Notes: a model not told the origin generated them from the letters alone. Positions 4,828-34,859 are shown, counted from the first letter of the stretch. The stretch: DNA of 64,000 bases from an uncultured Gammaproteobacteria bacterium (GCA_964500725.1 CAZCNP010000001.1:321520-385519), one strand, 5' to 3'. Program-made: numbers and translations.

Positions 4828-7800
4828 ATGGTTAGCCCTAAAAAAACCTTTTTGGCTGTTGTAAGTCTTTTATTGGTTGTTATTTCTGTATTTCCTCAAC
4901 CTCTTTTTGCCTCCCAAAAACAATATTTTGACTATGGCCCTTACTATTCTACCTCTCAAGTCTTAGGTTTTTCCTTCTCCTCTTTAGAAAACCTGCCTGC
5001 TTTAAAAGTTCCTGATAATTTAATACCAGCAAAAGCCAGCGGTGTTTTGCCAGACAGTCCTTTTTATTTTTTTGAGAAAGTTGCTGAAAATACCCAACTA
5101 ACATTTACCTTTGATCCAGTTAAAAAAGAACAATTAAGAGTAAGTTTTGCTGCCGAAAGATTAACTGAAGCTAAAACTCTGATGGACCAAGGTAAAACAG
5201 GTCCAGCTTCCCAAGCTTTAAATGATTACAGCAGGACTTTAGATACACTTGCTCAAAACCTGCCAGCAATTGCCCAAAGAAATGATCCAGCCTCTCAGCA
5301 GTTACTGACTCAGGTAGAAAAAGTTACTGCTGATCAAGCGGTGGCAGCTACTGCCTTAAGTTTGACTTCCTCCCCTGCTCAAGCTGAAAACTGGACTGAG
5401 GCCCAAAATACTGCCAGGCAGGTCTTGGATAAAATTACTGAAAGCAAAGGCGAGAGCGCTATTCCACAAGATTTATCAACAAGCCTTCAGCAACTCAAAG
5501 AGCAGGGTTTAATCTCAGAAGAAGAAAGCGGTAAAATATACAGCTTAAAAAACCGCGGCGAGGTCCGGGAAGAATTAAACAAGTTAGCTTCCTCAGGAGG
5601 CATTCCTCCTTCAGAACTCCTTAAGCTAGATACATCTGTAGCTAAATACTACCCAGATGTTCAAAAACAGGAAATTGCTAATTGGCAGATAGTAGAACTT
5701 AGAAGTTATCAATCTTTACCACAACCTACTGAAGAAATTATAGAGCAGCTGGAAAAATGGCAAAATCAATCAAATATCCCCCCATCAAATGATATCAAAC
5801 CATATCTTTGGTATACTAGAGCTTCTGATTTAGCTCAAAAAGTAGACTTATCAAACTTTACCTCTGAGCAGCAAACTGAAGCAGTCAAGTCTTACCCTGC
5901 TATTGCTGCCAACCCTACCTATTCACCTCCTCCCAGCCCTACACCCACTCCTTCTCCTTCACCAGCAGCTGATAATACATCTCCAGTGCCTTCAGCCACA
6001 CCTTTATCCTCAGCTCCCCCAGCATCTCCGCCTCCTGTCCCGGTTGAACCATATTTGGAAGAAACCGTTGGAGCTTTGCCTGGCCAACCTACCTATATAT
6101 TAAAGCAGCTAGGTGAAGGTTTCAGTCTAGCTTTCACTTTTGATCCTGCTGAAAAAGCCAGGCTGCAAATGCAAGTGGCTGAACGCCGTCTAGCTGAAGC
6201 TGAAGCACTCTCCAGCGATCCTAAAAAAGCTAGTCTTTATGAGGCTACCCTGAAAAATTATCAACAGGCAGTAAATACTGCCTCAACTTTTGTTAAAGAA
6301 TTGAAGGATCCCAAAATTGCCAAACAGGCAGCAGAAAGGCTGGAATCCCAGTCTGCCAGGCATGAGGTAGTTTTTGAAAAAGGACTCCTGCCTGCCCCGG
6401 CTGAAAATCCCAATCTAATTTCAGATGTTATTAATGCTGCTGAAGATGCCATGGACAGAAGCGCTGATGTTTTGGATCGTCCTGCCTTGCCGCCGCAACT
6501 TGCATCCAGATTAGGCGATCTGAAAGCTCAGGGGTTGATTTTAGAAGAAGAAGCTGCAGATTTAGTCAAATCTGCTACTAGAGAAGAAGCGCGCAGTAAA
6601 ATCAGAAAACTGTTAGAAGCCCAAACTTTTCCTCTGGCTGATGCTAAAAAGCTGGATGAGGCCCAAAGTTTTGTCAACTCAACTGACTACAATCAACTAG
6701 TAGAGGTTAGAAAAGTTGAGGAACTGCAAAACTTAAGATCAGTACAAACAGATCTGGCCCAAACTCCCACACTCAAATCTCAAGCTACCAACTTAGCCCA
6801 AAAAGAAGCAGTTTTAACTAGCTCTTTTGATCCTGCCCTTATCAATAAAGAAGATCTGGCTGGCAAAGAGAACTTAGTTAAAACTTATGAAAAACTCTCA
6901 TCAATCCCCCGTCCGATTAACGGCGGACAGTTTGGGTCCGAGGCTACTCCAGGGGCCAAACCCGCAGCTACCCCCTTACCCCAAGATGCAGTTTTAACAG
7001 CTTGCCCTGAAGGTGCTGTTTTCAAGCAATATGAAGGCTGTGTGTGGGCTGACAGCGGTAAAAAGCTCAACGACTATGATCAGTACAAATGCGAAGGCCC
7101 CAGGCAGTATTATTCTTTTGCTGTAAGAAAATGTGTGGCTTATGATTCCTCTCAAGGCTATCAACAAGATGCCCAGCCTGTTTGTCCTGTAGGTTATCAA
7201 TGGAGTTGGCAAAATCAAAGCTGTCAAACTTCAACTGGAGGTATTTTACCTTGGCCCAGCCCTTCAGCCCAACCAGAACCTAAAGACGAAAAAGAAATAG
7301 AAGAAAGATCAAAAAGCTGTCCTGAAGGCTCTTCCTACAAACCTCCCCAGGGCTGTGTTTGGGATGATGATGGCAAATCAGTTTATGATTCTGAGCAGTA
7401 TCGCTGCAACGGACGTGGTCAATATTACTCTTTTGAACAAGGAAAATGTGTAGCTGCTCCTAAAGAGGGAGAGCCATATCCCAAAGATACCTCCCCTGCT
7501 TGTAAAGAACCTGACACTTATTGGAATTGGTCCCAAGGCAAATGTGTTAAAACTGTTGAGGCAGTCGCCGCTACTCCGCAAGCTATTAATATTGATGAAG
7601 TTAGGCCAAATTTTGCCACCCCTGGTAATCCTTTCTATTTCCTAAAACAAGCTGCTGAAAGAGTGCAAGAATTTACCGCCTTTACTCCTGAGGCTAGAGA
7701 ACAAGTCCGCGCATCTCAAGCCAAAGAAAGACTGGCTGAGGCTATTGATGCTTCAAAAAGAGAAGATGAAACAGGGATTAAAAATGCTTTATCCGCCTAT

Positions 7801-10344
7801 ACCTCTACCATGCAGAATCTGGTAAGCGATCTGTCTAAAGCTCAACTTTCTGATACTGCCAAAAATCAAATCAGCAAAAATTTAGCCCAAAGCTCTGTTG
7901 AACAAAACCTCCTGTTGCAAAAACTCCAAGCTTTGGCGGGAGCCGAACAAGATACTCCTATCAGCGCTGCAGTTTCAGCCACTATCTTAGGTGTAGATAA
8001 AGCAGCAGATATTGGCGGTGAGCCTCCTATTCCTGCTGATGTAAAAGAAAAAATTGAAGCCTTGCCAGAGAAAATGATCTCTGATGGTGACAAGAAAAAA
8101 CTTTTGGAGATGAAATCCCGGGTAGAAGCCAGACTCACTTTAGGAGGCTTGATAGCAAATGGCGCTTTAACACAAACTGATACTAATTTTCTAAATGAAG
8201 ATTTTGACAAGGTAGACCAAAATACCAAGATTAAGGTAGAAGAACTCAAAAAACTAGAAGAGATTGCAACTGCAACTGAAAGCAAGGATAAACTTGATGA
8301 AAAAATCAAAAAAAATGAAGATGTGGCCCAAAAATTACAAGAATTTGAAAAAACTTTTGAAGTTGGCCAGGAAGTTCCTGTGGAGATTAGACCTTATGTT
8401 AGACTCACCAGAATCAATGAGGTAACCCAGACTATCAGGCCTGACCTAGTCAGACTTAATGAGTTCCAAAACCGCAAAGATATACAGCTGGCTGTGGCTA
8501 CTTTACAAGAAGAGTTTAAACCAACAGCTGAAAACTTTGGAAAGATTGAAGAATTCCGAAGAAGAAACCCCTCCTCGCCTCTTCCTCCAGATCTAGCCAG
8601 GGTCGAGGCTCTATCTTACAATTTAGGAGTAAGGAGGGAAGCAGGACCATGTTTTCTACCCACTCCACCTTTTGCACCAAACACTCCTTGTCCAGCAGCT
8701 GGAGCAGCTATCCCTGTTACTTCATACTATAGCTTCGTCACGCTCTATGCACCAGAGGATCCAGGTTCTCTCAACCCTTCCATACCCTCCACTGACAAAG
8801 ATGGCAAACCTTTAGTTTACGGACAAGGGCCAAAACCCGCAAGTCCTGGAGTTTGTCCATCAGACTCTCATTGGATGTATGACAGCGGAGGCTGGTGTAT
8901 GTCCAACAGCGGCAACTATAGTTCATCTTACTCTTACACACCAACTGGCACTGGCGCAGGTTATACTCCTTACAGCTCTTATTACACTGCCCCAGGAGCG
9001 CCTCCAGCAACCTACGGCTATCCTGCAGCAGGAGGTAATTACAACTACTCTTCCTACAGCCCGCCAAGTTATTACGGCACTGCTCCCACTTATTACACCA
9101 CTAACCCTCCTGCTGGTACTGTGCCTGGTTCAGGACCAAAACCTACCTCACCTGGTCAATGTCCATCAGGGTACCATTGGATGAGTGATAGTGGTGGCTG
9201 GTGTATGGCTGATGGACCAACCTATGTACCAAGTGGTTCTTACCAAAGCTCTTATCCTGCAGGCGCTACCACCAGTGAAACTCCACCCTCAGGAGGCTAT
9301 AATTGTGGCAGCCAGCCATATGATCCTGTCACCAAAAGATGTAAAGACGGAGCTTGTCCAGGAGGATTTAATTGGGATGGTAGCAAATGTGTAGCAAGTA
9401 GTCCTTATTATTCCCCTAATTTAACTCAGTCAAGCTGCGGTCCTGGATATTACTGGGATGGTAGAGGTTGTATTCCCACCTATTCCGGAGGAAACAGCAA
9501 CGGAGGAAGTTACTCTAGCAGCGGAGGCGGGTATTCTCCCGGCTCATACCAGTATGGCTGTACTCCAGGATATTATTGGGATGGTAGTAAATGTGTGGCA
9601 GGCAGCAATGAAGGCTCAGGCTGGTCAGATACTGCTGCCCGATCCCAATCCTGGTGTCAACCTCCCTCAAACGGCTGTGGCTCTAACTCTTATTGGGATT
9701 ATGGCAGCTGTTATTGCCGAAGCTCAAGCACTTATTCTGGAGGTAGCGGTCCCTCACCCAGCAATCAATGTCAAGGTCTAAGCTGCGGTGGAGGTGCATG
9801 GTTAGATTACTCAACCTGTAGTTGTAAGTATTCAGGTGGTTCTGGAACTAGTTCTACAGGATCTACCATCACTTGTTATCCTCCTTCTGCAGGTTGTCCA
9901 GGCGGCTGGTATGACTATAGCAGTTGCAGCTGTAAAACCAGCTCCTATAGCACAGGTTCATCAGGCGGGACTTCTGGTGGATCATCTTCAGGCTCTTGCC
10001 CCTCAGGCTCTCATTGGATGAGTGAGAATGGCGGTTACTGTATGTCTGATGCTGAAAGAGATGCTGCTTCCACCGGCGGTTCTTCCGGCGGATCATCCTC
10101 TTCCGGCTCCTGTCCTTCAGGCTACCATTGGATGGATAACAGCTGGTGTATGCAAGATGGCAGCGGTAGCACCTCTACACCCGCACCTACTAGTACCAAC
10201 TCTACACCTACTCCAACCTCTCAACCTGAACAGCAACAGCAAACACCCCAACCTACTTCCCAACCTGAGCAACAGCAACAATCCACCCCCCAACCTGAGC
10301 AACAGCAGTCTACTCCTCAACCTGCATCCTCTCCTTCATCATAA
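4828..10344 (+). CDS. Large secreted protein (1,838 aa): signal peptide, three DUF5667-like helical domains, novel Cys-rich repeat modules, Y/S/G-rich low-complexity region, C-terminal Q/P/T repeats
   Basis: Signal peptide LAVVSLLLVVISVFPQPLFA. Three copies of the FYF[FL]K...F.F.P...LAE helical module (DUF5667-like) at aa ~75, ~430, ~940. Four copies of CPSG[YS]HWM..GGWCM, three of C.PGYYWDG..C, paired CPEG...GCVW...Y.C...QYYSF..KCVA modules. YS-rich stretch SSYSYTPTGTGAGYTPYSSYYTAPG.... Terminal TPQPTSQPEQQQQ x3. Confidence 0.7.
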   Translation: MVSPKKTFLAVVSLLLVVISVFPQPLFASQKQYFDYGPYYSTSQVLGFSFSSLENLPALKVPDNLIPAKASGVLPDSPFYFFEKVAENTQLTFTFDPVKKEQLRVSFAAERLTEAKTLMDQGKTGPASQALNDYSRTLDTLAQNLPAIAQRNDPASQQLLTQVEKVTADQAVAATALSLTSSPAQAENWTEAQNTARQVLDKITESKGESAIPQDLSTSLQQLKEQGLISEEESGKIYSLKNRGEVREELNKLASSGGIPPSELLKLDTSVAKYYPDVQKQEIANWQIVELRSYQSLPQPTEEIIEQLEKWQNQSNIPPSNDIKPYLWYTRASDLAQKVDLSNFTSEQQTEAVKSYPAIAANPTYSPPPSPTPTPSPSPAADNTSPVPSATPLSSAPPASPPPVPVEPYLEETVGALPGQPTYILKQLGEGFSLAFTFDPAEKARLQMQVAERRLAEAEALSSDPKKASLYEATLKNYQQAVNTASTFVKELKDPKIAKQAAERLESQSARHEVVFEKGLLPAPAENPNLISDVINAAEDAMDRSADVLDRPALPPQLASRLGDLKAQGLILEEEAADLVKSATREEARSKIRKLLEAQTFPLADAKKLDEAQSFVNSTDYNQLVEVRKVEELQNLRSVQTDLAQTPTLKSQATNLAQKEAVLTSSFDPALINKEDLAGKENLVKTYEKLSSIPRPINGGQFGSEATPGAKPAATPLPQDAVLTACPEGAVFKQYEGCVWADSGKKLNDYDQYKCEGPRQYYSFAVRKCVAYDSSQGYQQDAQPVCPVGYQWSWQNQSCQTSTGGILPWPSPSAQPEPKDEKEIEERSKSCPEGSSYKPPQGCVWDDDGKSVYDSEQYRCNGRGQYYSFEQGKCVAAPKEGEPYPKDTSPACKEPDTYWNWSQGKCVKTVEAVAATPQAINIDEVRPNFATPGNPFYFLKQAAERVQEFTAFTPEAREQVRASQAKERLAEAIDASKREDETGIKNALSAYTSTMQNLVSDLSKAQLSDTAKNQISKNLAQSSVEQNLLLQKLQALAGAEQDTPISAAVSATILGVDKAADIGGEPPIPADVKEKIEALPEKMISDGDKKKLLEMKSRVEARLTLGGLIANGALTQTDTNFLNEDFDKVDQNTKIKVEELKKLEEIATATESKDKLDEKIKKNEDVAQKLQEFEKTFEVGQEVPVEIRPYVRLTRINEVTQTIRPDLVRLNEFQNRKDIQLAVATLQEEFKPTAENFGKIEEFRRRNPSSPLPPDLARVEALSYNLGVRREAGPCFLPTPPFAPNTPCPAAGAAIPVTSYYSFVTLYAPEDPGSLNPSIPSTDKDGKPLVYGQGPKPASPGVCPSDSHWMYDSGGWCMSNSGNYSSSYSYTPTGTGAGYTPYSSYYTAPGAPPATYGYPAAGGNYNYSSYSPPSYYGTAPTYYTTNPPAGTVPGSGPKPTSPGQCPSGYHWMSDSGGWCMADGPTYVPSGSYQSSYPAGATTSETPPSGGYNCGSQPYDPVTKRCKDGACPGGFNWDGSKCVASSPYYSPNLTQSSCGPGYYWDGRGCIPTYSGGNSNGGSYSSSGGGYSPGSYQYGCTPGYYWDGSKCVAGSNEGSGWSDTAARSQSWCQPPSNGCGSNSYWDYGSCYCRSSSTYSGGSGPSPSNQCQGLSCGGGAWLDYSTCSCKYSGGSGTSSTGSTITCYPPSAGCPGGWYDYSSCSCKTSSYSTGSSGGTSGGSSSGSCPSGSHWMSENGGYCMSDAERDAASTGGSSGGSSSSGSCPSGYHWMDNSWCMQDGSGSTSTPAPTSTNSTPTPTSQPEQQQQTPQPTSQPEQQQQSTPQPEQQQSTPQPASSPSS

Positions 10345-16416: not shown

Positions 16417-19400
16417 ATGTTAAAAGTTAATTCGTCCAAAAAATCACTTGTTAAAATTGCCCAAGCCTCCAAGTTATTAGGCGTCCACAAAGATACTTTA
16501 AGAAGATGGGAAAAAGCTGGCAAAATTAAAGTAGTCCGAGACCAAAAAGGAGACAGGCTTTATGATGTTTCTAAACTAATTAACTCAGCTCCTGCTTCTC
16601 AAACCTCCAAGGTGCCTACAACTGAGCAGCTGTTAAAGTCAGCTTCCCAACACGCTCAACAATCCACCTTACAACCTCAGCTACCAGCTTTAGATTACTC
16701 TGCTTTGTTAGATCAAACTATATCAAAGGATAACAAGCAAACAGGCAGAAGGTTTTATTTTATGGCTGCAGGCTTCTTCCTGCTCTTAGTGCTGATAGGC
16801 TTAGGTTATATTAGAGTTTTATCTACTCAATCCAAACCACAAATAATTACTTCTTTGGAAAACAAGATACTGGCAGCTATCACCTCTCAACCTTTAGTTA
16901 AGATAAATGCTGATGTCAAAGTAAGAGGGTCATTATCTGTATCAAACGATATCAATGGGCTGGCGATTGCCACTGATTCAGCAGGCTTTACCTTAACTTC
17001 TGAAAATGGCAAATTAACTGTGGTTGGCGATGCCTTGTTAAACCAAGACTTATCTTCCAGCGGCTCCCCTACTTTTTCTTCTCTAAATTTATCCTCAACC
17101 AGCAATCAGCTAGTCTTTCAATCAGGCGGACCAGCAGGCACCTTAACCTGGACTCCAACTGCTGCAAGAACTATTACCCTGCCAGACACCACTACTACTT
17201 TAGTTGGAAAAGATACCACCGATACTTTTACTAACAAATCCATTTCTGGGTCTTCTAACACTTTTACCAATATCCCCAACTCTGCTCTAACAAATAAAAA
17301 AATAACTGTTACAGCTGGAACTAATTTAACCGGCGGAGGAGATGTAGAACTTGGTTCATCAATTACTTTGAGTTTAAAAGAATCCCCTACTTTCTCCGGT
17401 GTAGTCTTACTTTCTGATGGCACAGCTGCTGCCCCAGGCTTAGCTTTCAGCAATGATACTAATACAGGTTTATATAGAATTGGTACAGATAAAATTGCCC
17501 TGATCACAGGAGGATTAGCTACCTCAGGGATTACCATTGATTCTTCTGGCAATTTAGGAATAGCCAATAATTCTCCAGCATATAAATTAGATGTAACAGG
17601 CACTGCCAATATTACCAGCAATACTACTATTGGTGGAACTCTGGGAGTAACAGGTATCTCTACTTTTTCATCAACTATGGGGGTGTCGTCAGGATTATCT
17701 GTAGGTAGTACCTATTCTTCTCTGTCACCACCAACCAGCGGTGCCATTATAGAAGGAAATGTCGGTATCGGAACCAGCGCCCCTGGTTCTTTTGCGTTAA
17801 ATGTAAGCGGCAATACTTACCTTAACGGGAGGCTAGAAACTTCAGGTAATGTTGGTATAGCTAATTCTGCTCCATCTTTTACTTTGGATGTAGTAGGTAC
17901 TGGCAGATTTTCTTCTTTACTTAATGTCTTAGGTAATATAGGTATTGGTACCTCTGGTGCAGCAGGATCAGCCCTGCAGGTTAATGGTGGAGGATTATTT
18001 GGCTGGGGAACAACTTCTACTGCTTTATCTTCTGGAGCTATCTTAGGAGTTAATGGAAATGTAGGAGTTGGGACTACTTCCCCTCTGGCTAACCTGCATG
18101 TTGTTGGACAATGTGTTGTTGGGGAAACAAAACTTAAAAGAAGAAGGAGAAAGAAGGGCAAAAATGGTGAGTGGTCAGATGAATATGAAGATGTAGAGAT
18201 TAAGGATATCAAGGAAGGGGATGAGATACTAACACTTGATGAAAGTACCGGCAGATTTGTACCTGCTAAAGTTAACGCCCTCAAAGATATGGGGATCAAA
18301 GAAATCTTTGAGTTGACCACTGCTACCGGAAAAACCATCAGGACCACCGGCAACCATCCCTACCTGGCACTTGGCGTAGAACACCTAGCCCTCACTAGTC
18401 ATGATTCGGCATCAGGTGTTACCGGTGCTTCCTTGCTCAACTCTACCATTTTATCTCTCACAAGAGGGAACAAAGACCACCGGATCGCCGTCTTTATCGA
18501 TGCGGCAAACCTTGAAAAATCCGTTGAGAAAATAGGCTTCAAAGTCCACTATAAAAACCTTAAACGCCTAATTGCTTCTTTAGGTTCTCTTGACTATATT
18601 GGTTATTTTACAGTAGCTACTTCTTCAGAACAGAATGTGACTCTTCGCCAGTCTCTGCTGCGCTTTGGTTATAACGTGGTTACCAAACCTCTAAAACTTA
18701 TTAAAACCGCCAAAGGCCTGAAACCCAAGGCTGATGTTGATGTAGAGATTACCACCGAAGTAATGGAACGCAAAGATGACTTTGATCTGATGATTCTCTT
18801 TTCAGGAGACAGCGATTTTTACTATCCAATTAAGCTCTTACAAGAAAAGTATGGAAAGAAAGTAATAGTTATCTCTACCAGATACAGTGTCTCCAGGGAA
18901 CTACTCAAAGTTGCTGACCGTTACATTGATATTGCCAAGCTTAAAGGGGAAATTGCCAGAGGGCAAAAAGAAAGCCCGTCTTTTGCAACGGGCGACTCAT
19001 CTTTCGACGAGAGCAATCTTACGACTGCACTTCAAACTATATCAGATATCCTGCCTTTTGTCAAGAATTTGGGCAAATGGACTAAGGTGTCAGGGCTAAA
19101 GACCGGCCAGATGATAGCTGCAGTAGGGAAAGACAACCAACCTCAGTTTGAAAAAATTGCCTCTATTAAGAAGGTTAAACGCGAGCAGGTCTTTGATATA
19201 GAAGTAGAAGGCACCCATAACTTTGTAGGCAATGATATAGTAGCTCATAATACTTTTATTACAGGTAATGTTGGGATTGGGGCTGCTTTTACCACCTCAG
19301 GTATAGTTACCCCCACTAATGGTTTAGCTGTCCAGGGTAATGTAGGTATAGGAACTTCTACCACCAATGCTGCCTTAACAGTAATAGGTGGGATAACAAC

Positions 19401-22400
19401 TACTGGCAATGTTGGTATTTCAAACTCTGCCCCATCATTTACTTTGGATGTAGTAGGCACTGGCAGATTTTCTTCTGATCTAACTGTTTCTGGAACTACC
19501 TTCTCTGCCTCATCAGCTGCTGGATCATTTGATTCCTTAACAGTAGGAGGAGGTTATGGATCAACAGGAGTATCAATCTCCAATGCTGGAGTAATCCAGG
19601 CTAATGGAGCTTTAACTGCTGATGGACTGATTACTGGTTCAACAGGTTTAACTATTACTGGAGGTGTAGTTTCTTTGAATGCTTCCTCAAATAATGCTGT
19701 CAATATAAACACAGGATCATCTACAGGTGCTTTAACATTAGGAGGAGGATCTGGAACTGTGGAAGTGGCTTCCACCAGCTGGGATATTTCTACTTTAGGA
19801 GCTATCTCTGGTGTCACTGGTATTACTACCTCAGGAGGATATACCCAATCTGGTACTTCCGAGAACCTCTTTACTGGTAATGTGGGTATAGGAGTATCTG
19901 CTACAGGAGCTAAACTTTCTTTAAATGGCGGAGCATATATCTGGCCAATTACAACTAATATTGCTGCTCCTAATAACGGATTAGCTGTTTATGGTAGAGT
20001 GGGCATTGGTACTACCTCCCCCGCAACCAATCTCCACTTGATTGATACTTCTGGCAACACTGAGATAGCCAGGTTTACCTCCACGACCAACTCTAAGGAC
20101 TCCTATGTTCAGTTCAATACTACTTCTTCCACTTCTTCTATGGGATTGCAACTTTCTAGCACTGCTGCTAACTCAGTAGGTATGAGAATTGATGGCTCAG
20201 GAAACTTATCTTTCCATACAGGTGCAGCCAGCAGCTCAGTTATGGCTAATAATAATAAAAAGATGACTATTGATACCAATGGGAATGTGGGTATAGGCAG
20301 CAGTGCCAGCAATGGTATTAGCGCAATTCAACTTTTCCAGGTTAATGGAACCTCCTCCTCCCCATTTGTAGTTACTTCAGCTGGTAATGTTGGTATAGCT
20401 AATTCTGCCCCATCTTTTACTTTGGATGTAGTAGGTACTGGCAGGTTTTCTTCTTTACTGAATGTTTTAGGAAATGTGGGGATAGGAACATCAGGAGTAG
20501 CAGGATCAGCCCTGCAGGTTAATGGTGGAGGATTATTTGGCTGGGGAACAACTTCTACTGCTTTATCTTCTGGAGCTATCTTAGGAGTTAATGGAAATGT
20601 AGGAGTTGGGACTACTTCCCCTCTGGCTAACCTGCATGTTGTTGGACAATGTGTTGTTGGGGAAACAAAACTGAAAAGAAGAAGGAGGAAAAAAGGCAAA
20701 AATGGCAAGTGGATTGATGAATGGGAAGAGGTGGAAATCAAGGATATTAAAGAAGGCGATGAGATACTTTCCTTAAACGAGAGTACTGGTGAGTTTATTC
20801 CCAGAAAAGTTAAGGGGCTTTTGGGTATGGGAATGCAGGAGGTGTATGAAATCTTAACCGAAGAAGGTAAAACCATCCAAACCACCAAAAACCATCCTTA
20901 CCTGGTAGACCTCTCTGAAACAGCAGGTACAGCGCTTCATTTTATTCAAAAAGCCACTTTTGAATATAGCGAGAGATTAGGAAAAGAGTTTTATATTGAT
21001 CATCTTGCAGGCAAGAAAATAAAATCAAAAGCATTAAATGACACTATCAACTTTACTCATACAGGCTGGAACCACTTTACAGAAAAAAGCAGATCAATCA
21101 ATGAATTGATTACCAGATTTTTTGCTCTTCCCTATGCTATTACAGTTCTATCTCAAGCCAGCAAAGTAAAAATTCATGAGGAAAGAAAGAAACCAGATAT
21201 GGTAGTGGAATACTGGATTTTTGAAGAAATTATCGAGTATGCGTTAATCCGGGTAGTAATTTCTGCTGTGAATCATGGCCCTAAGTTTTTCTTGTCTTGT
21301 TCCTGGCTGGGGACACAGGCAGAAGGAGGAATTTTAGCCAACAAAAAAGAGCTGTCTCTCTCGCAGGCAGTTACTCCTGGTCGACGTCGGGAACTGGTTA
21401 TCCCTCAGCTCTTTACTAAGCTGTTTATACCAAAAAATGTCAAAAATGTCAAGTGGGTTGAGGTTAGAAACTTAACAGTTGGGGCTAGTATCGCCACTAT
21501 TTCAGGTTGGGAAAAGATAGTTTCCATCAAAAATATGGGTAGAAAATCTACTTTTGATATAGAGGTAGCAGGGACTCATAATTTTCTAGGCAATAATATA
21601 GTTGCCCATAATACTTTCATTACAGGTAATGTTGGTATAGGAGCTGCTTTTACCACCTCAGGTATAGTTACCCCTGCTGATGGTTTAGCAGTCCAGGGCA
21701 ATGTAGGTATAGGGACAACTACTACCAATGCTGCTTTAACAGTGATAGGAGGAATAACCAGTACTGGTAATGTGGGTATTGCTAACTCTGCTCCATCATA
21801 TACTTTGGATGTAATAGGTACTGGCAGATTCTCTTCTACTCTGCTAGCTAATACCTTCTCCTCCTCAGAGGTAACCATCACTGGTGGAACCATCAATAAC
21901 ACCAGTATTGGAGCAACTGTAACCTCAACTGGCGCTTTTACTACTCTTTCTGCCTCTGGAGCTTTGGCTGCCAATGGTGGGATTACCTTTGATAATGCTA
22001 CTGATACATTAGGAGCTTTTACTGCTGCTGGAACTATCAATATGAATGGCAATATTATTACCAATATAGGGGCAACAGATACCAGCTTTGCCACCACTGG
22101 AGCCTTAGCCATTACCTTAGATGGAGCTGATGCCAGTGGCGCTCTCTCTGTTTCCAATGCCTCTCAAACCTCAGATATCTTTGTGGCCAAAGATAACACT
22201 ACTGCTGTGTTTACCATTAAAGATGGAGGCAATGTTGGGATAGGCTTTACCTCTCCTTCAGCTTTGCTTCATCTCAGACAAACAGGATCAGGTAATGCTT
22301 TCTATGTAGAAGATCAGGCAGATGATACTTCTTCTCCTTTTGTGATCAATGCTGATGGTAATGTTGGTATAGCTAACTCTGCTCCATCATATACCTTGGA

Positions 22401-25400
22401 TGTAGTAGGAACTGGAAGAATATCTTCTGATCTGGTAGTAAATGGCACTACTTTCTCTGCCTCATCAGCTGCTGGATCATTTGATTCCTTAACAGTAGGA
22501 GGAGGTTATGGATCAACAGGAGTATCAATCTCCAATGCTGGAGTAATCCAGGCTAATGGAGCTTTAACTGCTGATGGACTGATTACTGGTTCAACAGGTT
22601 TAACTATTACTGGAGGTGTAGTTTCTTTGAATGCTTCCTCAAATAATGCTGTCAATATAAACACAGGATCATCTACAGGTGCTTTAACATTAGGAGGAGG
22701 ATCTGGAACTGTGGAAGTGGCTTCCACCAGCTGGGATATTTCTACTTTAGGAGCTATCTCTGGTGTCACTGGTATTACTACCTCAGGAGGATATACCCAA
22801 TCTGGTACTTCCGAGAACCTCTTTACTGGTAATGTGGGTATAGGAGTATCTGCTACAGGAGCTAAACTAGCCATTAATGGTGGAGCATATATCTGGCCTA
22901 CTACCACAGCTATCTCTGCTCCCAATGATGGGCTGGCTGTATATGGTAATGTTGGTATAGGAACTACTACACCTTTAGCTAACTTACATGTTGTAGGACA
23001 ATGTGTAACTGGAGATACCAGACTGAGAAGAAGGAAGAAAAAGAAGAATGGTGAGTGGTCAGATGAATATGAAGATATAGAGATTAAAGATATCCAAGCA
23101 GGAGACCAGATACTGTCCTTAAATGAAAAGACAGGGCAATTTGAACCTCACACTGTTCTCGCCCTAAAAGATATGGGAATCCACCAAACTTTTGAGTTGA
23201 TTACTGCCTCCAGGAAATCAATCAGAACAACAGCTAATCATCCATACCTTATTAAACAACAAAAAACCCGCCTTTCAGCGAGTTCTTTGACTGAGTTTAA
23301 TGCTGATGCACTATACTCGGGTCTGAGTATCAATACTCTACCACAAAATACCAATAATGTCAAGTCTATGACTGCACGAAGTGGAACTAATGTGGACCTG
23401 ACGGGAATTGAACCCGCAAACCCAGATTTCTCAGACCCGAGCGTACACCAGTACCAGGCCCACATAAAATTATTATCTCATAAATGGATTAAAGTTTCAG
23501 GGCTTAAACCAGGCATGGAAATAGCTACTATTAATGGATGGGAAAAAATAGCAGCTATTAAAAAATTTGCCAGAGAACAGGTTTTTGATATAGAAGTTGA
23601 AGGAACACATAACTTTGTAGGCAATGATATAGTTGCCCATAATACTTTTATTACAGGTAATGTTGGGATTGGGGCTGCTTTTACCACCTCAGGTATAGTT
23701 ACCCCCACTAATGGATTAGCAGTCCAGGGTAATGTTGGTATTGGGACAACTACTACTACTAATGCCTTAACTGTTGCAGGTAATGTTAATACTACTGGTA
23801 ATTTAGGAGTTGGAACATCAGCTACAGGAGGATATAACTTAACAGTACAGGGTACTACCAGTATTACTGGAGCTGCCACTTTTGGATCTACTGGTACCTT
23901 TGCCTCTACCTTAACAGCTTCCAATGGCTTAACTTTAACAACTGGAGCTTTAAATCTAACCTCTACCTCAGGACAGGCTAATCTAGCTCTAACCAATAAC
24001 ACCAACACCTTCACTGTTAATGGATTATTTGGGATAGACACTACCAATAACAGAGTTGGTATTGGAACCACTGCCCCCTCTGCAGCAAGGCTTGAAGTTA
24101 TTGGAGCAGGATCCGTGACAGGACGCACCTTCTGGGTTACTGGATCAAATCTTTCCTCAGGCCTGGCAGTACTGGATAATGGTAACGTGGGTATTGGTAT
24201 TAGTGGACCAACTGCCAGTTTGGATATTGTGGGAACCTCATATACTACTGCCTTAGATCAATCTCAAACAAGTACTAATGGATTTTATAGCTCCAGTATA
24301 CAAGCGCAATCTTTCACCCCTTCTGTTACCGGCCCTTTCATGTATGCTGATATAAAAATCCAATCAGGAGGAGGAGCTCCAGGCAATACCGCTCTTACCC
24401 TCCGCTCAGGAGAAGATGTTTCAGGTACAGTTTTGGCTACTTCAACCAGTGTTGCCAGTTTAGGCAGTGGTTGGTATCGGATTACTTTTGACAATACCCC
24501 TACTTTAACTGCCGGACAGCAATACACCATCCGCTATGATAGAACAAGTACAAACGACTGGGGAATACAAGGTGCTAATCCCTATTCTGGAGGAAGATTC
24601 TATGGCTTAGGAGCTTGGAAAACCGATGATGGTGCCTTTAAAACTTATGTCTATACAACAGATACTACACTGGCAGATGCAGTTAAAATGGCTAATAATT
24701 ACACCTCGGCAAACAGCGGGGCTGTTTTAAACATTACCACAGCTGGAATAGCTGGAAGCTATGCCTTAAGAGTTAACGATGACGGTACATTTACCGATAC
24801 CTCCCCCTTTGTTATTGATACTACTGGTAATGTTGGTATAGCTAACTCTGCTCCATCATATACCTTGGATGTAGTAGGAACTGGAAGAATATCTTCTGAT
24901 CTGGTAGTAAATGGCACTACTTTCTCTGCCTCATCAGCTGCTGGATCATTTGATTCCTTAACAGTAGGAGGAGGTTATGGATCAACAGGAGTATCAATCT
25001 CCAATGCTGGAGTAATCCAGGCTAATGGAGCTTTAACTGCTGATGGACTGATTACTGGTTCAACAGGTTTAACTATTACTGGAGGTGTAGTTTCTTTGAA
25101 TGCTTCCTCAAATAATGCTGTCAATATAAACACAGGATCATCTACAGGTGCTTTAACATTAGGAGGAGGATCTGGAACTGTGGAAGTGGCTTCCACCAGC
25201 TGGGATATTTCTACTTTAGGAGCTATCTCTGGTGTGACTACTTTGAATATGTCAGGCGCCATCACTGCTGCTACTGCCTCCAATACCATCAATGGTTTAA
25301 TTATTAACTCTGGAGCATTATCTGGTGTCACTGGTATTACTACCTCAGGAGGATATACCCAATCTGGTACTTCCGAGAACCTCTTTACTGGTAATGTGGG

Positions 25401-28400
25401 TATAGGAGTATCTGCTACAGGAGCTAAACTTTCTTTAAATGGCGGAGCATATATCTGGCCAATTACAACTAATATTGCTGCTCCTGATAATGGCTTGGCT
25501 GTATATGGCAATGTGGGTATTGGTACTACTACTACCAATGCTGCTTTAACAGTGATAGGAGGAATAACCAGTACTGGTAATGTGGGTATTGCTAACTCTG
25601 CTCCATCATATACTTTGGATGTAATAGGTACTGGCAGATTCTCTTCTACTCTGCTAGCTAATACCTTCTCATCATCAGATGTAACAATCACAGGAGGAAC
25701 TATTAATGACACTACTATTGGAGCAACTATTACCTCAACTGGAGCTTTTACCACTTTAACTTCATCAGGTAATACCACCTTGGGTACAGGAGCATCATCT
25801 GTCAATACCATTGGTTCAACCACTACTCCAGGAACTCTAACCCTGCATGGAGCCACTACTTTGGACAATACCTTCACTGTTTCAGGAGCCAATCTCACTT
25901 CTTTGGGTGGGAACTTATCTTTTACTGGCACTGCTCCATCTTTAACTTCTGGATCATCAGTACTAGGAATATTTGCTGGAGGTAATGTAGGAATTGGGAC
26001 TACTTCTGCCATGGCCTCCTCTTTTAATGTTAATGGCAATCAGGTTATTGGTTCATCTTTCATTGGAGGTGCTGCCCCCACTAATGGATTAGCAGTCCAG
26101 GGTAATGTTGGTATTGGGACAACTACTACTACTAATGCCTTAACTGTTGCAGGTAATGTTAATACTACTGGTAATTTAGGAGTTGGAACATCAGCTACAG
26201 GAGGATATAACTTAACAGTACAGGGTACTACCAGTATTACTGGAGCTGCCACTTTTGGATCTACTGGTACCTTTGCCTCTACCTTAACAGCTTCCAATGG
26301 CTTAACTTTAACAACTGGAGCTTTAAATCTAACCTCTACCTCAGGACAGGCTAATCTAGCTCTAACCAATAACACCAACACCTTCACTGTTAATGGATTA
26401 TTTGGGATAGACACTACCAATAACAGAGTTGGTATTGGAACCACTGCCCCCTCTGCAGCAAGGCTTGAAGTTATTGGAGCAGGATCCGTGACAGGACGCA
26501 CCTTCTGGGTTACTGGATCAAATCTTTCCTCAGGCCTGGCAGTACTGGATAATGGTAACGTGGGTATTGGTATTAGTGGACCAACTGCCAGTTTGGATAT
26601 TGTGGGAACCTCATATACTACTGCCTTAGATCAATCTCAAACAAGTACTAATGGATTTTATAGCTCCAGTATACAAGCGCAATCTTTCACCCCTTCTGTT
26701 ACCGGCCCTTTCATGTATGCTGATATAAAAATCCAATCAGGAGGAGGAGCTCCAGGCAATACCGCTCTTACCCTCCGCTCAGGAGAAGATGTTTCAGGTA
26801 CAGTTTTGGCTACTTCAACCAGTGTTGCCAGTTTAGGCAGTGGTTGGTATCGGATTACTTTTGACAATACCCCTACTTTAACTGCCGGACAGCAATACAC
26901 CATCCGCTATGATAGAACAAGTACAAACGACTGGGGAATACAAGGTGCTAATCCCTATTCTGGAGGAAGATTCTATGGCTTAGGAGCTTGGAAAACCGAT
27001 GATGGTGCCTTTAAAACTTATGTCTATACAACAGATACTACACTGGCAGATGCAGTTAAAATGGCTAATAATTACACCTCGGCAAACAGCGGGGCTGTTT
27101 TAAACATTACCACAGCTGGAATAGCTGGAAGCTATGCCTTAAGAGTTAACGATGACGGTACATTTACCGATACCTCCCCCTTTGTTATTGATACTACTGG
27201 TAATGTTGGTATAGCTAACTCTGCTCCATCATATACCTTGGATGTAGTAGGAACTGGAAGAATATCTTCTAATCTAACAATAGGTGGATCATTAACTTCT
27301 ACTGGTAACCTACTTCCTTCAGCTGATGATACTTATGATTTAGGTTCTTCTTCTGCCAGATGGCAAGATCTCTATGTTGGCCCCACATCCTTAAATCTAG
27401 TTTGTACTGCAGGAGAATGTGGTACAGCCAGAACTTGGAATATTGGTGTTCAGGAATCTTCTGGAGTAGCAGCTGCCCAAGGTAATTTAAGGATTGGGCT
27501 TTCTTCCAGTAGAGACTTTCTCAATATTAACACCTCTGGAAATTTAGGAATTGGGACCAGTAATCCAGGAAACCTTTTGACTGTTTCAGGAGGCAATATT
27601 GAAATTTCCAGCGCTTCTCCACAGTTGATTTGGACAGACACCACAGCTGGTCAGGATGCTTTTGGAGCTATAGCCAACAGCGATTACTTAGAATTTATGT
27701 CCGGAGGCACCAGAAATATTTTAGTCTTGGCTGGTGCAACCCACGCAAATGCAGGTAATGTGGGGATTGGAACAGCAACTCCTGCCTTTAAACTGGATGT
27801 TAATGGTGGCATCAATTCAGGTACATCTGCTGGATATTCTGTTGGATCGTGGCTTGGTATGTCTTATGCAGCAAATGGAGCAAGTTATAACTTAAACTTA
27901 GGTGGTATTAATGCCTCTACCTGGGTGGGACTAGGTCTTTTCACTTCTGGCACAGAAAAGGTCAGAATCGATACAAATGGCGCACTATATTCAGGCAATA
28001 TTGGTACCTCTATTGCTAATGCTAATTTATTTGTCTCAGGGGCTACCTCTGGAAATGTTGGTATCGGCACTACAACTCCAAATACCAGACTGGATGTTAT
28101 AGGTAATGGGACTTATGCTGCTGATTTCATGAATGGAAGTGTGGGAATTGGAACTAGCAGCCCTCAAGCTACCCTTCATGTAGCTTCTGCCTTTACTGCA
28201 GTTTCAGATACTGGCAGCACTGGTGGTAACTTAATTATTCAAGGAACTGATACTACCAGGGATCCAACTCATGGGGCTGCTTTAAGCTTCTATCTTCCAG
28301 CTACTACAGCAGGAGGAAATCCTTATGTTCAAGCCAGAATTATAGGAGCACCAGATAATAGTTCTAATAATAATACTTCTGGAAGATTAATTTTCCAGAC

Positions 28401-31400
28401 TAGAAATAATACCAGCGCCTCTTTCAATAATGCCATGATGATAGATTCAAATGGAAATGTTGGCATTGGCACAACTGGGCCTAATGCTAAACTGGATGTG
28501 ATTGGTGGAATCAGGGTTACTAATACGAGCAGCACCAATGCTCTTGTGTTTGGTCTTGCAAATAGCAATCATTACCTCAAGCTCTACGCAGATACAGACA
28601 CTGGTATCAGCTACATTAAGAACTTATCTAACTATGATATTAGACTGGGACATGCAAGCAGTGATGATGTAATAATCAACTCTGCTGGTAATGTAGGTAT
28701 AGCAAACTCTGCTCCAAGTTATACCCTGGATGTTATAGGTACAGGCAGATTCTCTTCTGACCTTACTGTTGGAGGAAACTTAACTGTCTCTGGCACTACT
28801 TTTTCTGCCTCAGGAGCTGCAGGATCTTTTGATTCTTTAACAGTTGGTGGAGGTTATGGATCAACTGGAGTAACTATTTCCAATGCTGGGGTAATCCAAG
28901 CCAATGGGACTTTAACTGTTGATTCTACCTCTACTTTAACAGGAGCTGTCAGTATTGGAGCTTCCAATGCTGCTTTAACATTTACTGGTACTACTCCATC
29001 AATCACTTCTGGTTCCTCTGTCTTTGGAATCTTTGCTGGGGGGAATGTGGGAATAGGGACCACCTCTACCATGGGGTCAACTTTGAATGTTTCAGGTAAT
29101 CAGGTTATTGGTTCATCTTTCATTGGTGGAGCTGCTCCACAAAATGGATTAGGGATTCAGGGTAATGTTGGTATAGGCACTACTACTGCTACCTCTTATA
29201 ATCTTCAAGTTGTAGGGACTATTGGTTCAACCAGTGGTATTACTATAGATGCTGGAGCAGGCAGCTCTAATGCAACTCTTACTCTCGCAGGAAGAAATTC
29301 TGGGACAGCCCATTCTGCTTCTGTTTTCTCCAATTTTAACGGAGGCCTTAATCTAAAACCAGCCACAACTGGCAGTGATATTAATGTCTATCTTTGGAAT
29401 AATGCCACAGCTTCTACCTCCAATACCATGCCTTTAAACTTTGATTTAAATGCTACCACAGATGGTAAAACTACTTTTGCTCAAATCATGGGTCTTTCTA
29501 CTGATATTACCTCGGGAGCTGCCTCTGGAGCTTTATCTTTCTACACCAAAAATACTGGATCCTTGAAGGAAAGAATGAGGATAGATCTAAACGGTAACGT
29601 TGGTATTGGTACTTCTGCTCCATTTACTGCATTAACAGGAGCCTTCCAAGTAGCACCAGTTTCTGCCCCTGCTGCTTTCTTTGTAGGAAGTACAGGTAAT
29701 GTTGGGATAGGGACTACTGCCCCTACTAACAACTTATCAGTTATAGGCAATGTTAATACCACTGGTAATTTGGGAGTAGGGACATCTGCCACAGGTGGAT
29801 ATAACCTAACAGTAAATGGAACTGCTAGAATCTCAGGAAATATAGGTATAGGTGGTACTGCTACCTTCAGTAATCCAACTATCTTTAACAATGGTATTAC
29901 CAATAATGGAGTCTTTTCTCAGACAGGACAATTCCTAGCAGGAGATGGATCAGCTGCAGCTCCTTCGTATTCCTTCACCAGTTCCACTGGAGCAGGCCTC
30001 TGGTCACCATCTTCTAACAATATTGCCCTAACTACTGGAACTCCTACTACAACTGGTACCATTAAAGGAATCTCTGTTGATTCCTCTGGTAATGTAGGAA
30101 TTGGGACTTCTAATCCAGCAGGGCTTTTGGACATTGTTAAATTAGGAAATGATAACCCAATCTATATAGATCGATATAGTACAAACAATGGCCATGTTCC
30201 CACAATCCAATTCCGCACCAGCCAACAAAACAGTCTAGGCAACACTGCCACCACTATTAGCAACATGTATGGAAGACTTGAATGGTATGGGAATGATGGT
30301 AACGGCTTCCAAAGGGCTGCCTATATTCAAGCACAGCAGGGTTCAAGTACTGCAACTGATGCTGACTTAACAATATCTACAGGTGCAAGCGGAACAATTT
30401 TCATGGAAGGGAGTTCTGGCAATGTTGGTATTAACAATGCTGCTCCTGTGGCTAAATTACATTTAACAGGAGCTGGGATTACCACTGGAGTTAACTTCCT
30501 CTCCACAGGAGCTGGTGGAGGTGGAGGTCTAGTAGGTATTTTAGATAATGGCAATGTTGGAATAGGGACAACTGCACCAGGACAGAAACTGGATGTGGTT
30601 GGTACTATTAAATTTGGTTCCGGGGGTTATTACTCTTTGGGCACAGATCCTACCCGACTGGAAATAAGAAATGCCGCCAACGATTCCATCGCTCTTTATA
30701 CGAACGGTACGCGCGGCTTACTTATGACTGGGTCTCAAAAAGTCACAGTTGGAGGAGATATTTCTGGTGGTAATAGTTTATTCAATGTTCAAGGTGGTAC
30801 AGCAATTGGGTCAAGTTATTACCTGGCGACAGCTCCTACCAACGGCCTATTAGTTGAAGGTAATGTTGGTATTGGTACCACCAGCCCGATCACTAAATTA
30901 GATGTTAGCGGTGGAGTTGGAGACACTTCATCTACTGATCCTCAATTCTCTCTTTCCAGATGGTCTTCAACTGGTAATAACGAAGTAGTCAAATTTAGAT
31001 TAATGGAGCAAGCTTCAGGTGGCACTAACTTTGGGGTATTTACCATCCAAACCAAGAGTACAGCCTCTGCAGCAGAAAGCGATAGTTACTACACTAATGC
31101 TTTCTCAATCACTGCAGCTGGAAATGTTGGTATTGGTACCACTGGACCAGCTGTTAAGCTTGATGTTGTTGGTGGAGGAAACTATGTTGACGGTTTGAGA
31201 TTAAGATATTCTGCCTTAACTAACGGATGGAACTTTGCTCAGGGGACTGGCGGACAACTTTATTTTGGTTATGGCTCTGCTGCTTCACCAACAACCATGA
31301 TGCTGATAGATACCAATGGCAATGTTGGTATTAATAATGCTGCTCCTGTGGCTAAACTTCATTTAACTGGAGCAGGAACAACTACTGGGGTTAATTTCCT

Positions 31401-34371: not shown

Positions 34372-34859
34372 ACACAGATCATAAAAAAAGCATGATTCTC
34401 ACGGATAAAAAACAGATCAACACCGATCAGTCTACATCCGCTTTAAATCCGCCTAAATCCTCTTCAGGATTATTATTTGCCGACTTAACTTACAGGATTC
34501 GGGGAGCAATATTCACAGTTTACAACCAGCTAGGGTTTGGTCACAAAGAACAAGTTTACCAAAAAGCTTTAGAAAAAGAATTAATAGAAACTAAACTACC
34601 TTTTAAAAGAGAAGTTAGTTTAAATGTGAAATATAAAGATGAAGTGATAGGAAGCTACAGACCTGATTTTGTTGTAGATGATAAAGTAATTGTTGAGTTA
34701 AAAGCTGTTGAGTTTATGCCTAAATCTTTTGAAACCCAGTTAATCCATTATTTAAAAACTACTGGTTATCAATTAGGACTATTGGTTAACTTTGGTTCTA
34801 CTAAGTTAGTTATCAGAAGATTGCTATGGACAGGTCAGAAGGGAGATTCTCACAAATGA
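34350..34859 (+). CDS. GxxExxY-family protein (PD-(D/E)xK-like small nuclease-fold protein); probable start at M15 (34392)
   Basis: LTYRIRGAIFTVYNQLGFGHKEQVYQKALEKEL...YRPDFVVDDKVIVELKA contains the GxxExxY signature and a D...E.K triad. The ORF-track start overlaps the 3' end of the giant ORF. Confidence 0.6.
   Translation: MDYKHTMNTDHKKSMILTDKKQINTDQSTSALNPPKSSSGLLFADLTYRIRGAIFTVYNQLGFGHKEQVYQKALEKELIETKLPFKREVSLNVKYKDEVIGSYRPDFVVDDKVIVELKAVEFMPKSFETQLIHYLKTTGYQLGLLVNFGSTKLVIRRLLWTGQKGDSHK

Follow-up and report, generated by a model that had tools for sequence, protein, structure and literature searches.

In the textbook view, inteins are parasites that live in replication and repair enzymes at conserved sites and spread by means of LAGLIDADG or HNH endonucleases. 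How, then, did three intein-like elements come to occupy the same position of a repeated motif within a single giant surface-protein gene, and are they genuine inteins at all? This question is raised by a 64,000-nt stretch of DNA recorded for an uncultured Gammaproteobacteria bacterium (GCA_964500725.1, CAZCNP010000001.1:321520-385519; hereafter the window), in which an earlier note, made from the sequence alone, had described three inteins between positions 18112 and 23643 and proposed that they had homed from repeat to repeat inside the gene. We located the three elements (I1, I2 and I3) to the base, all of them in frame within one host gene (Table 1). Our analysis favours, as a probable reading that leaves appreciable room for doubt, old and site-specific class-1 inteins that carry cargo and are spliced out of their host protein, with flanks homogenised by gene conversion and sites that were not recently copied from one another.

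Identification of three inteins at one repeat junction

All three elements start with Cys1, in the form CVVGETKL or CVTGDTRL, and carry a TxxH block B (TTGNHPYL in I1, TTKNHPYL and TTANHPYL in the other two), a block F reading FDIEV[EA]GTHNF (DIEVEGTHNF in I1) and a block G that ends in IVAHN and is followed by Thr+1. They interrupt one common extein context, ...LANLHVVGQ/TFITGNVGIGAAFTTSGIVTP... (the slash marks a splice junction here and below), and both the motifs and the junction LANLHVVGQ/TFITGNVGIG that had been read earlier were recovered in every copy. The Pfam model Intein_splicing (PF14890) scored 69.1, 58.9 and 56.3 bits for the three inteins against a cut-off of 35.8, and the NCBIfam C-terminal intein model TIGR01443 was passed by all of them, while the N-terminal model TIGR01445 was passed by I1 and I3, with I2 just under it (23.6 against 24.5). 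This comparison with intein models, which the earlier note had proposed as a check, thus came out in favour of inteins, the N-terminal model being marginal for I2.

The best matches among solved structures were DnaB and DnaX mini-inteins (E=2e-10 to 5e-9). These class-1 mini-inteins (Npu DnaB, 4o1r; Ssp DnaB, 1mi8; Spl DnaX, 7cfv) resemble I1-I3 in blocks A, B, F and G, sharing Cys1, the TxxH motif, the terminal HN and a hydroxyl or thiol residue at +1. They differ in occupying conserved replication-enzyme sites, one per site, whereas I1-I3 occupy a repeated surface-fibre motif and combine a poly-Arg/Lys loop after block A with NYN, LPD3-like or RNA cargo.

The same catalytic residues recur across relatives. 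Our own hidden Markov models of the N- and C-splicing parts were run on six-frame translations of 82 loci, of which 78 were kept; the loci were gathered because they contain inteins, and the sample is therefore biased as well as incomplete. Cys1 was found at 104 of 104 N junctions and the terminal HN at 118 of 118 C junctions, with Thr at +1 in 116 of the latter and Ser and Cys once each, and T76, T77, N79 and H80 of block B were invariant in the family alignment. Judging from these conserved residues, I1-I3 are very probably real, canonical class-1 inteins (Cys1 ... His-Asn/Thr+1).

Hint domains in such a protein might also cleave or rearrange it instead of splicing, as bacterial intein-like (BIL) domains or related elements would do. 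BIL domains are Hint domains that usually lack both the +1 nucleophile and cargo at the endonuclease position, and hypervariable secreted repeat proteins are reportedly their typical habitat, an observation ascribed to Amitai and colleagues in 2003. The Hint fold and a hypervariable secreted repeat host are indeed common to BIL domains and to the elements of the window, which also gave weak Pfam matches to PT-HINT, Hint and Vint, but the Intein_splicing and NCBIfam intein models were top-scoring, the solved BIL domain 2lwy matched only at E=0.009 against 2e-10 for DnaB inteins, and the cargo lies at the endonuclease position, as is characteristic of inteins. Because of this cargo, and because Thr+1 is kept (116/118) while the rest of the C-extein varies, we side with the earlier note in regarding the elements as true inteins rather than BIL domains, and consider cleavage or rearrangement of the surface protein very unlikely.

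As true inteins, I1-I3 would be translated within a precursor of 5,984 aa, from which each would cut itself out by protein splicing in its standard four steps, Gln-1 becoming joined to Thr+1. Without the three inteins, the fibre has a computed length of 5,070 aa, with the predicted junction peptide ...LANLHVVGQTFITGNVGIGAAF... at the spliced sites.

Directly after block A, a loop rich in Arg and Lys is present in each intein (18124-18170, 20662-20708 and 23014-23050, plus strand; e.g. KLKRRRRKKGKNGEW). Such a loop, not a usual feature of inteins, is shared by most family members and might serve to bind nucleic acid.

A site-specific intein family in surface-fibre repeats

A protein search with I1 returned 127 matches, mostly Patescibacteria fragments annotated as 'NYN domain-containing protein, partial', which share its junctions (e.g. 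...KLHVEGQ/CVTGDT ... AHN/TYLSGNVGIG). Furthermore, a genome scan restricted to one genome per species yielded at least 380 relatives confirmed by tblastn, again mostly in Patescibacteria, with some in bins of Omnitrophota, Elusimicrobia and Woesearchaeota. The three inteins belong to a large and apparently undescribed site-specific family residing in surface-fibre repeats of the Candidate Phyla Radiation (CPR); a literature search, confined to searchable full texts, found no account of these inteins or of the RNA cassette described below. The family targets one position of the repeat GNVGIGTTSPxxxLHVxGQ/T[FY]IxGNVGIG in giant Patescibacteria surface-fibre proteins, the motif G[IV]GTTSPxxxLHVxGQ/ standing upstream of the majority of the 104 N junctions and Gln-1 being present in 68 of them. 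These inteins probably explain the fragmentation and misannotation of giant genes in metagenome assemblies, of which the annotation quoted above is an example.

Occupancy by several inteins is not peculiar to the gene of the window and is a family-wide feature of giant Patescibacteria proteins. Five inteins lie in one gene of locus L023 and four in one of L032, and the homologous MerR-fibre gene of L001 (JACPKL010000001.1, Candidatus Daviesbacteria) has about eight at LANLHVVGQ/, as read from broken open reading frames (ORFs), with EVDQS-type, LPD3-like, NYN and RNA-cassette cargoes. Frameshifts in the Arg/Lys-rich loop that follows block A split the L001 gene into several ORFs, reflecting either misassembly of repeats or pseudogenisation. 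Housekeeping genes with multiple inteins, such as those for ribonucleotide reductase or RFC, hold three to four, each at a different and non-homologous conserved site. They are alike in having several inteins per ORF, but in the present family all of them sit at the same motif of paralogous repeats.

The exact sub-repeat GNVG.GTT.PLANLHVVGQ/TFITGNVGIGAAFT is present three times in the window's gene and holds an intein each time, with no empty copy; related 23-aa units (e.g. ...ALTVIGGITST/GNVGIA) are without intein. Among the related loci, '...LHV.GQ' continues into an intein 59 times and into something else three times, and HN stands before 41 of 42 copies of the half-site T[FY][IL]xGN[VL]G, counts that are biased upward since the loci were gathered for containing inteins. 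Intein-free alleles with both half-sites, which the earlier note had suggested seeking in relatives, did not turn up. The empty junction DNA CATGTTGTTGGACAA/ACTTTTATTACAGG was absent from the window with up to 3 mismatches allowed, and neither 1.58 Mb of DNA from related loci nor the proteins retrieved contained an uninterrupted ...HV.GQT[FY]I... junction. Viral contigs gave 0 matches to the degenerate empty-junction pattern CAYGTNNNNGGNCARACNTWYNTNNNNGGNAAY, but they are the wrong habitat and this result says little; the spliced junction used as a protein query gave no uninterrupted homologue at E<=1e-10, a weak negative under an overly strict threshold. A single intein-free copy of the identical N half-site was found in L025, where the C side is different.

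From the half-site occupancy and the absence of uninterrupted junctions, Gln-1 and Thr-[Phe/Tyr]-Ile would appear to travel with the intein: either all suitable sites are already taken, or recombination between repeats moves the intein together with its immediate flanks as a single cassette. As no empty allele was found, mobility is deduced solely from cargo turnover and phylogenetic mixing, both considered below.

Protein cargo in place of a classical endonuclease

As in LAGLIDADG (PI-SceI) and HNH inteins, the cargo of this family lies between blocks B and F, insertion is site-specific and the same site is used across many genomes. Unlike in those homing endonuclease systems, no LAGLIDADG or HNH domain was detected in 79 full-length family members, nor were there such Pfam matches in I1-I3 or in eight relatives. 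This absence is specific to the family, since a canonical LAGLIDADG intein sits in GyrA of L003, one of the same genomes. The central domains comprise NYN, 'EVDQS', LPD3-like and 'FAFIDE' classes, the RNA cassette and others; I3 is without protein cargo.

At the endonuclease position of I1 lies an NYN domain, which passes the Pfam cut-off with all acidic active-site residues present. None of the 28 intein-borne and free-standing relatives differs at D44, N47, D124, D147 or D149 of the central region, and the domain is a predicted nuclease with an apparently intact active site. NYN is also the commonest cargo, its blastp single-linkage cluster gathering 26 of the 79 inteins, 13 of which pass a strict active-site motif test. 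Its nearest relatives outside inteins are free-standing proteins of ~210 aa. NYN domains are regarded as RNases, not as homing DNases, and NYN and LabA-like proteins are said to have been described as PIN-fold nucleases by Anantharaman and Aravind in 2006; no mention of NYN domains in inteins was found in the searchable full-text literature.

The domain at the same position of I2 is LPD3-like and probably a distant member of that family (PF18798), since it scores under the cut-off (24.3 bits against 27) while its free-standing relative P0135 passes it (29.3 bits). It gave no fold match, and an exhaustive search of 1.84 billion proteins returned just 49 representatives, namely free-standing proteins of ~130 aa, intein-borne copies and copies within leucyl-tRNA synthetases. 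Its distribution is that expected of a domain that may insert by itself.

The leucyl-tRNA synthetases P0143 and P0145 contain the LPD3-like domain as an insertion (aa 488-619 and aa 277-404, respectively), with no detectable intein around it. In addition, the intein central regions of L037, L042, L047, L053, L061 and L069 read like the antisense translation of a real gene, which suggests that some inteins of the family carry a protein gene on the opposite strand.

Age of the inteins and filling of the three sites

Nucleotide identity among the three inteins is 67-84% over the first 120 nt and then falls to ~50-60%; BLAST gave 74-75% for I3 against I1 and I2, and the ~75% estimated earlier for the N-terminal domains was a fair figure. 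Nonsynonymous divergence (dN) between them is 0.19-0.43 and synonymous divergence (dS) exceeds 1.2 or is saturated, with dN/dS of ~0.1-0.15, from which we take them to be old and under purifying selection; by comparison, dS = 0 in the upstream flank of I1 against I2. Their splicing parts are 66-71% identical (72% for the N parts of I1 and I2), while I1 is 77% identical to an NYN intein of L001 and the N part of I3 is 80% identical to an L015 intein of different cargo; each of the three has a relative in another genome that is at least as close as its neighbours in this gene. At one and the same extein site, the cargo is NYN in the window, 'EVDQS' in L015 and 'FAFIDE' in L025; the L025 flanks match exactly as protein, around an intein with a fourth kind of cargo. 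Different cargo at an orthologous site of related genomes points to turnover at a fixed site.

The flanks tell a different history from the intein interiors. Their description as near-identical in the earlier note holds for the upstream sides of I1 and I2, identical over 151 nt, and for the first 60 nt downstream (93-100%), but not for the upstream side of I3, which reaches just 62% over 150 nt (77% over 60 nt), nor for 150 nt downstream (81-87%). Two identical tracts, of 174 nt and 77 nt, span intein junctions (Table 1). The combination of identical junctions with ancient intein interiors argues for ectopic gene conversion between repeats, which had already been suggested for the flanks. Conversion homogenises just the repeats around the inteins and a few codons at either end of the inteins, and I1-I3 themselves appear as old, separately evolving lineages under purifying selection.

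These data bear directly on the intragenic homing proposed for the locus, in which the endonuclease of one invader would have cut paralogous empty repeats and the intein would have been copied in. Full occupancy of the exact sub-repeat, the apparently active nuclease domain of I1 and the resemblance of the junction-crossing tracts to co-conversion tracts would all fit a recent event of this kind. Co-conversion, however, would have left intein and flank equally similar, whereas an identical flank here adjoins interiors of ~50-60% identity; moreover, the inteins differ at saturated synonymous sites, their cargoes are unrelated, inteins of other genomes resemble I1 and I3 more than those of this gene do, and I2 and I3 are without nuclease. 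Recent copy-and-paste among the three sites is thus improbable, and this part of the earlier proposal finds no support.

Could the inteins instead descend from one intein-bearing ancestral repeat that was duplicated within the gene, the copies having since diverged and swapped or lost their central domains? The fibre gene is undergoing active reshuffling and is built of recent and old internal duplications, among them one of 1,201 nt (23702-24902 = 26075-27275, plus strand, 99.9% identity by BLAST) and several others of 85-99% identity; I1 and I2 share their first 23 nt and are 72% identical in their N parts, and the same intein/extein unit occurs many times over in the related L001 gene. Such segmental duplication, however, has to call on three replacements for three unrelated cargoes, leaves the closest relatives of I1 and I3 in other genomes, and meets yet other cargo at the orthologous first site of L015 and L025, which indicates turnover and not simple vertical descent. 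We regard it as unlikely, albeit with a real share of plausibility.

A further alternative is that the inteins are decaying and splicing-dead, in a giant gene that is pseudogenised or an assembly chimera. The L001 homologue, frameshifted in the basic loop after block A, and the many database relatives that are fragments would be in keeping with decay, but the ORF of the window is intact over 17,955 nt with the three inteins in frame, their catalytic residues are complete, and the dN/dS ratio is low. We give this explanation hardly any credence.

In the reading that we prefer, that of old site-specific inteins in gene-converted repeats, the three sub-repeat copies would have been filled from a family-wide intein pool or through ancient spread, rather than by recent copying from site to site. 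Spread would have used the repeat flanks as recombination homology, with NYN or another nuclease cargo as a possible source of the initiating break. That the family is mobile is implied by the turnover of its cargo at fixed sites, NYN being the leading nuclease candidate.

Several points weigh against this account. No LAGLIDADG or HNH domain occurs in the 79 members, and NYN domains, the candidate source of a targeted DNA break, are predicted RNases. No intein-free allele with both half-sites was found among the biased and incomplete sample of loci. The splicing reaction is deduced throughout from conserved residues and selection. Finally, the host would be an exported fibre, yet a folded intein must be reconciled with secretion.

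An antisense two-RNA cassette in I3

The linker of I3 is filled by an antisense cassette that is self-contained between the two splicing parts and consists of two promoter-like sites, a tRNA-like RNA, a predicted small RNA of ~70 nt and a terminator-like hairpin (Table 1). Seven homologous linkers align as DNA with both promoters and the terminator kept, and the linker peptides GIEPANP, GNRTPA and GVEPARP, from mini-inteins of different genomes, are different-frame translations of a reverse-complemented tRNA T arm. Scans for promoters and terminators alone were not enriched over shuffles, and the promoters were therefore judged by the conservation of hexamers and spacing across homologues; TTGACA of the second site recurs in most of ~40 cassette copies examined, in the general form TTGACA-17-TATAnT.

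The tRNA-like RNA scored 27.8 bits with the Rfam tRNA model RF00005, under its gathering score of 29, and received no ARAGORN call, against 79.9 bits with our own covariance model (R1). In its cloverleaf, 95.6% of cells are paired and 11 of the 20 pairs show changes on both sides, 0 of 500 shuffles being as good. Our model recovered 18 copies in intein loci, all antisense and most between the two splicing parts, with scores of 30-87 bits against 24-34 for genuine tRNAs of the same loci. G1-C72, G2-C71, G3:U70 and A73 are present in 18 of 18 copies and pairs 4-7 covary. We take these positions to be the alanine identity set of tRNA-Ala and transfer-messenger RNA (tmRNA), and alanine acceptance is predicted on that ground.

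The I3 RNA shares this set and a canonical T arm (GGGUUCRAUUCCC) with tRNA-Ala and the tRNA-like domain of tmRNA. It differs from them in its shortened D arm, a 4-bp leader/trailer extension, a variable anticodon (GUC seven times among the copies, also GAG, AAG, CUC, GAU and UAC) and its pairing with a dedicated complementary small RNA. Identification as an ordinary tRNA or tmRNA was rejected given the shortened D arm, the combination of G3:U70 with many anticodons and the Rfam scores, no cassette RNA, in the window or elsewhere, reaching the gathering score.

The partner RNA follows the same pattern across copies. In 17 of the 18, a stretch of 13-20 nt is complementary to the 5' strand and loop of the anticodon arm and covaries with that arm, starting 5-9 nt past the second -10 element, that is at the predicted 5' end of the small RNA. 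A strand test of this pairing was mildly informative, G:U extending it by 136 nt in total and A:C by 40 nt.

The cassette also exists away from inteins. When metagenomes were scanned for the shortened tRNA-like shape and the candidates were passed to our model, ~40 further high-scoring copies emerged. About 23 of them share the cassette architecture, and none of the ~40 has intein domains within 1.5 kb, which led us to reject the idea of an intein-specific cassette. Outside inteins, some cassettes lie between housekeeping genes (SerRS and SecA, MnmA and ParA, or PPDK), others are antisense and in frame inside other giant ORFs, and some are arranged in tandem. I3 is hence best described as a mini-intein in which a dispersed RNA module has taken over the endonuclease position. 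Its antisense orientation would be needed, as the terminator would otherwise stop the host transcript. In one L001 intein, the cassette stands between blocks F and G, not at the endonuclease position.

Between its NYN domain and its C-splicing part, I1 carries an antisense unit that looks like half of the cassette module, with a promoter-like site, a putative small RNA of ~60 nt with two GNRA-loop hairpins (read by eye, not folded) and a terminator-like hairpin. The peptide that corresponds to it, '...LPFVK...', is found again in further NYN inteins, for which reason this antisense feature may be conserved at the DNA level.

Among known selfish elements, Rickettsia palindromic elements are reportedly inserted in frame within ORFs, as described by Ogata and colleagues in 2000. 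Like them, the cassette is short, dispersed and non-coding, found between genes and open in frame inside ORFs. Unlike them, it has two sigma-70-like promoters, a tRNA-like RNA, a partner RNA and a terminator, and its copies differ strongly in the paired 'anticodon arm' segment. We found no known family that fits, and the cassette is an uncatalogued RNA family with no entry in Rfam. As to its function, we would place an RNA-RNA regulatory or addiction pair first, a controlled alanine-charging mistranslator second and a structured mobile element third.

Implications for intein host range and cargo

Instead of conserved enzyme sites, this family targets a repeated motif of giant, fast-evolving CPR cell-surface fibres, several times per gene, and so broadens the range of both hosts and cargo known for inteins. 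Its cargo offers candidate new homing nucleases, its genes provide a natural system for the joint study of repeat-mediated gene conversion and intein persistence, and the tRNA-like/small-RNA cassette, with its strong covariation and alanine identity set, is worth study by itself. It is possible, though we hold it doubtful, that the cargo is both functional and new, with NYN and perhaps LPD3-like or other domains acting as new intein-borne homing nucleases and the cassette as a new dispersed two-RNA system. Fibre-gene inteins of Patescibacteria would then be safe harbours for non-canonical selfish modules, and the two-RNA system might serve for addiction or regulation through an RNA-RNA pair, or as a mistranslating tRNA under control. 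An RNA pair of this kind could stabilise inteins devoid of endonuclease or tune the expression of the fibre gene.

Host gene and genomic surroundings

The host protein combines an N-terminal MerR-type helix-turn-helix (HTH) and a transmembrane (TM) helix with ~55 'GNVGIG' repeats and, near its C terminus, a Peptidase_S74 intramolecular-chaperone domain, from which we infer a giant membrane-anchored surface fibre. This bears out its earlier description as a giant surface repeat protein without housekeeping role. The fusion of a cytoplasmic MerR-type DNA-binding HTH (16417-16570, plus strand) and a TM helix to an extracellular fibre is odd, and the L001 homologue has the same fusion.

Table 1. 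Positions of the inteins, their cargo, the host gene and related features; coordinates refer to the window unless a locus or protein position (aa) is given.
Feature	Position	Strand	Remarks
Host ORF	16417..34371	+	5,984 codons, 17,955 nt, intact, all three inteins in frame
MerR-type HTH	aa 13-50	+	N terminus of host protein
TM helix	aa 113-132, nt 16753-16812	+	host protein
Peptidase_S74 domain	from ~nt 32461	+	near C terminus of host protein
Intein I1	18112..19251	+	380 aa; N-splicing part 18112-18366, C-splicing part 19081-19251
NYN (PIN-like nuclease) domain	18481..18933	+	I1 endonuclease position; PF01936 E=1.2e-23, 84.6 bits against cut-off 24.2
I1 antisense unit	18974..19064	-	between NYN domain and C-splicing part; terminator-like hairpin 18993..18974
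I1 antisense promoter-like site	19064..19036	-	TTGACA-17-(TG)TATAGT; 11/12 consensus matches
Intein I2	20650..21612	+	321 aa; N-splicing part 20650-20904, C-splicing part 21442-21612
LPD3-like alpha/beta domain	20932..21336	+	I2 endonuclease position; Y, G-W-x-H, R, W, S nearly invariant
Intein I3 (mini-intein)	23002..23643	+	214 aa; N-splicing part 23002-23250, C-splicing part 23473-23643
Antisense RNA cassette	23260..23500	-	fills I3 linker
Promoter-like site 1	23472..23500	-	CTGAAA-17-(TG)GATAAT; extended -10 TGnGATA invariant in 7/7 aligned homologues
tRNA-like RNA	23393..23461	-	69 nt; cloverleaf, shortened D arm; anticodon loop CUGAGAA
Promoter-like site 2	23335..23363	-	TTGACA-17-(TG)TAGAGT; TTGACA invariant in 7/7 aligned homologues
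Predicted small-RNA 5' end	23315..23327	-	CUCAGACCCGAGU; complementary to anticodon-arm 5' strand and loop (23442..23430)
Intrinsic-terminator-like hairpin and U-run	23260..23289	-	ends 10 nt before N-splicing part
174-nt identical tract	17961..18134	+	= 20499-20672; spans I1/I2 N junction: 151 nt extein and 23 nt intein
77-nt identical tract	19246..19322	+	= 23638-23714; spans I1/I3 C junction
Further cassette copies	L001 8394-8469, 12150-12225; L002 420-494; L004 702-776		
Further cassette copies	L008 10356-10430; L076 1245-1319		also metagenome loci L102, L130, L154, L150, L145, L161, others

The genes near the fibre gene, which include ribosomal proteins L10 and L7/L12, glycosyltransferases and a DUF5667 giant protein, together with two tRNAs, indicate a cellular genome. 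The closest DNA relatives are metagenome-assembled genomes, namely bins labelled Candidatus Daviesbacteria and, at 79-90% nucleotide identity, the unclassified bin CAYQAW01. We regard the bacterium that carries the fibre gene as Patescibacteria-like. Two more giant ORFs flank the region on the plus strand, at 4828-10344 (the DUF5667 protein, 1,838 aa) and at 34826-39877 (1,683 aa, with seven Laminin_G_3 domains), and no inteins were detected in either of them. A small PD-(D/E)XK (PDDEXK_3) ORF overlaps the end of the fibre gene (34350-34859, plus strand), and an ORF of the 23S_rRNA_IVP family adjoins the homologous fibre gene in L002 (5510-6034) and L003 (13263-13679); a nuclease-like or IVP ORF beside the fibre gene may be a recurrent association.

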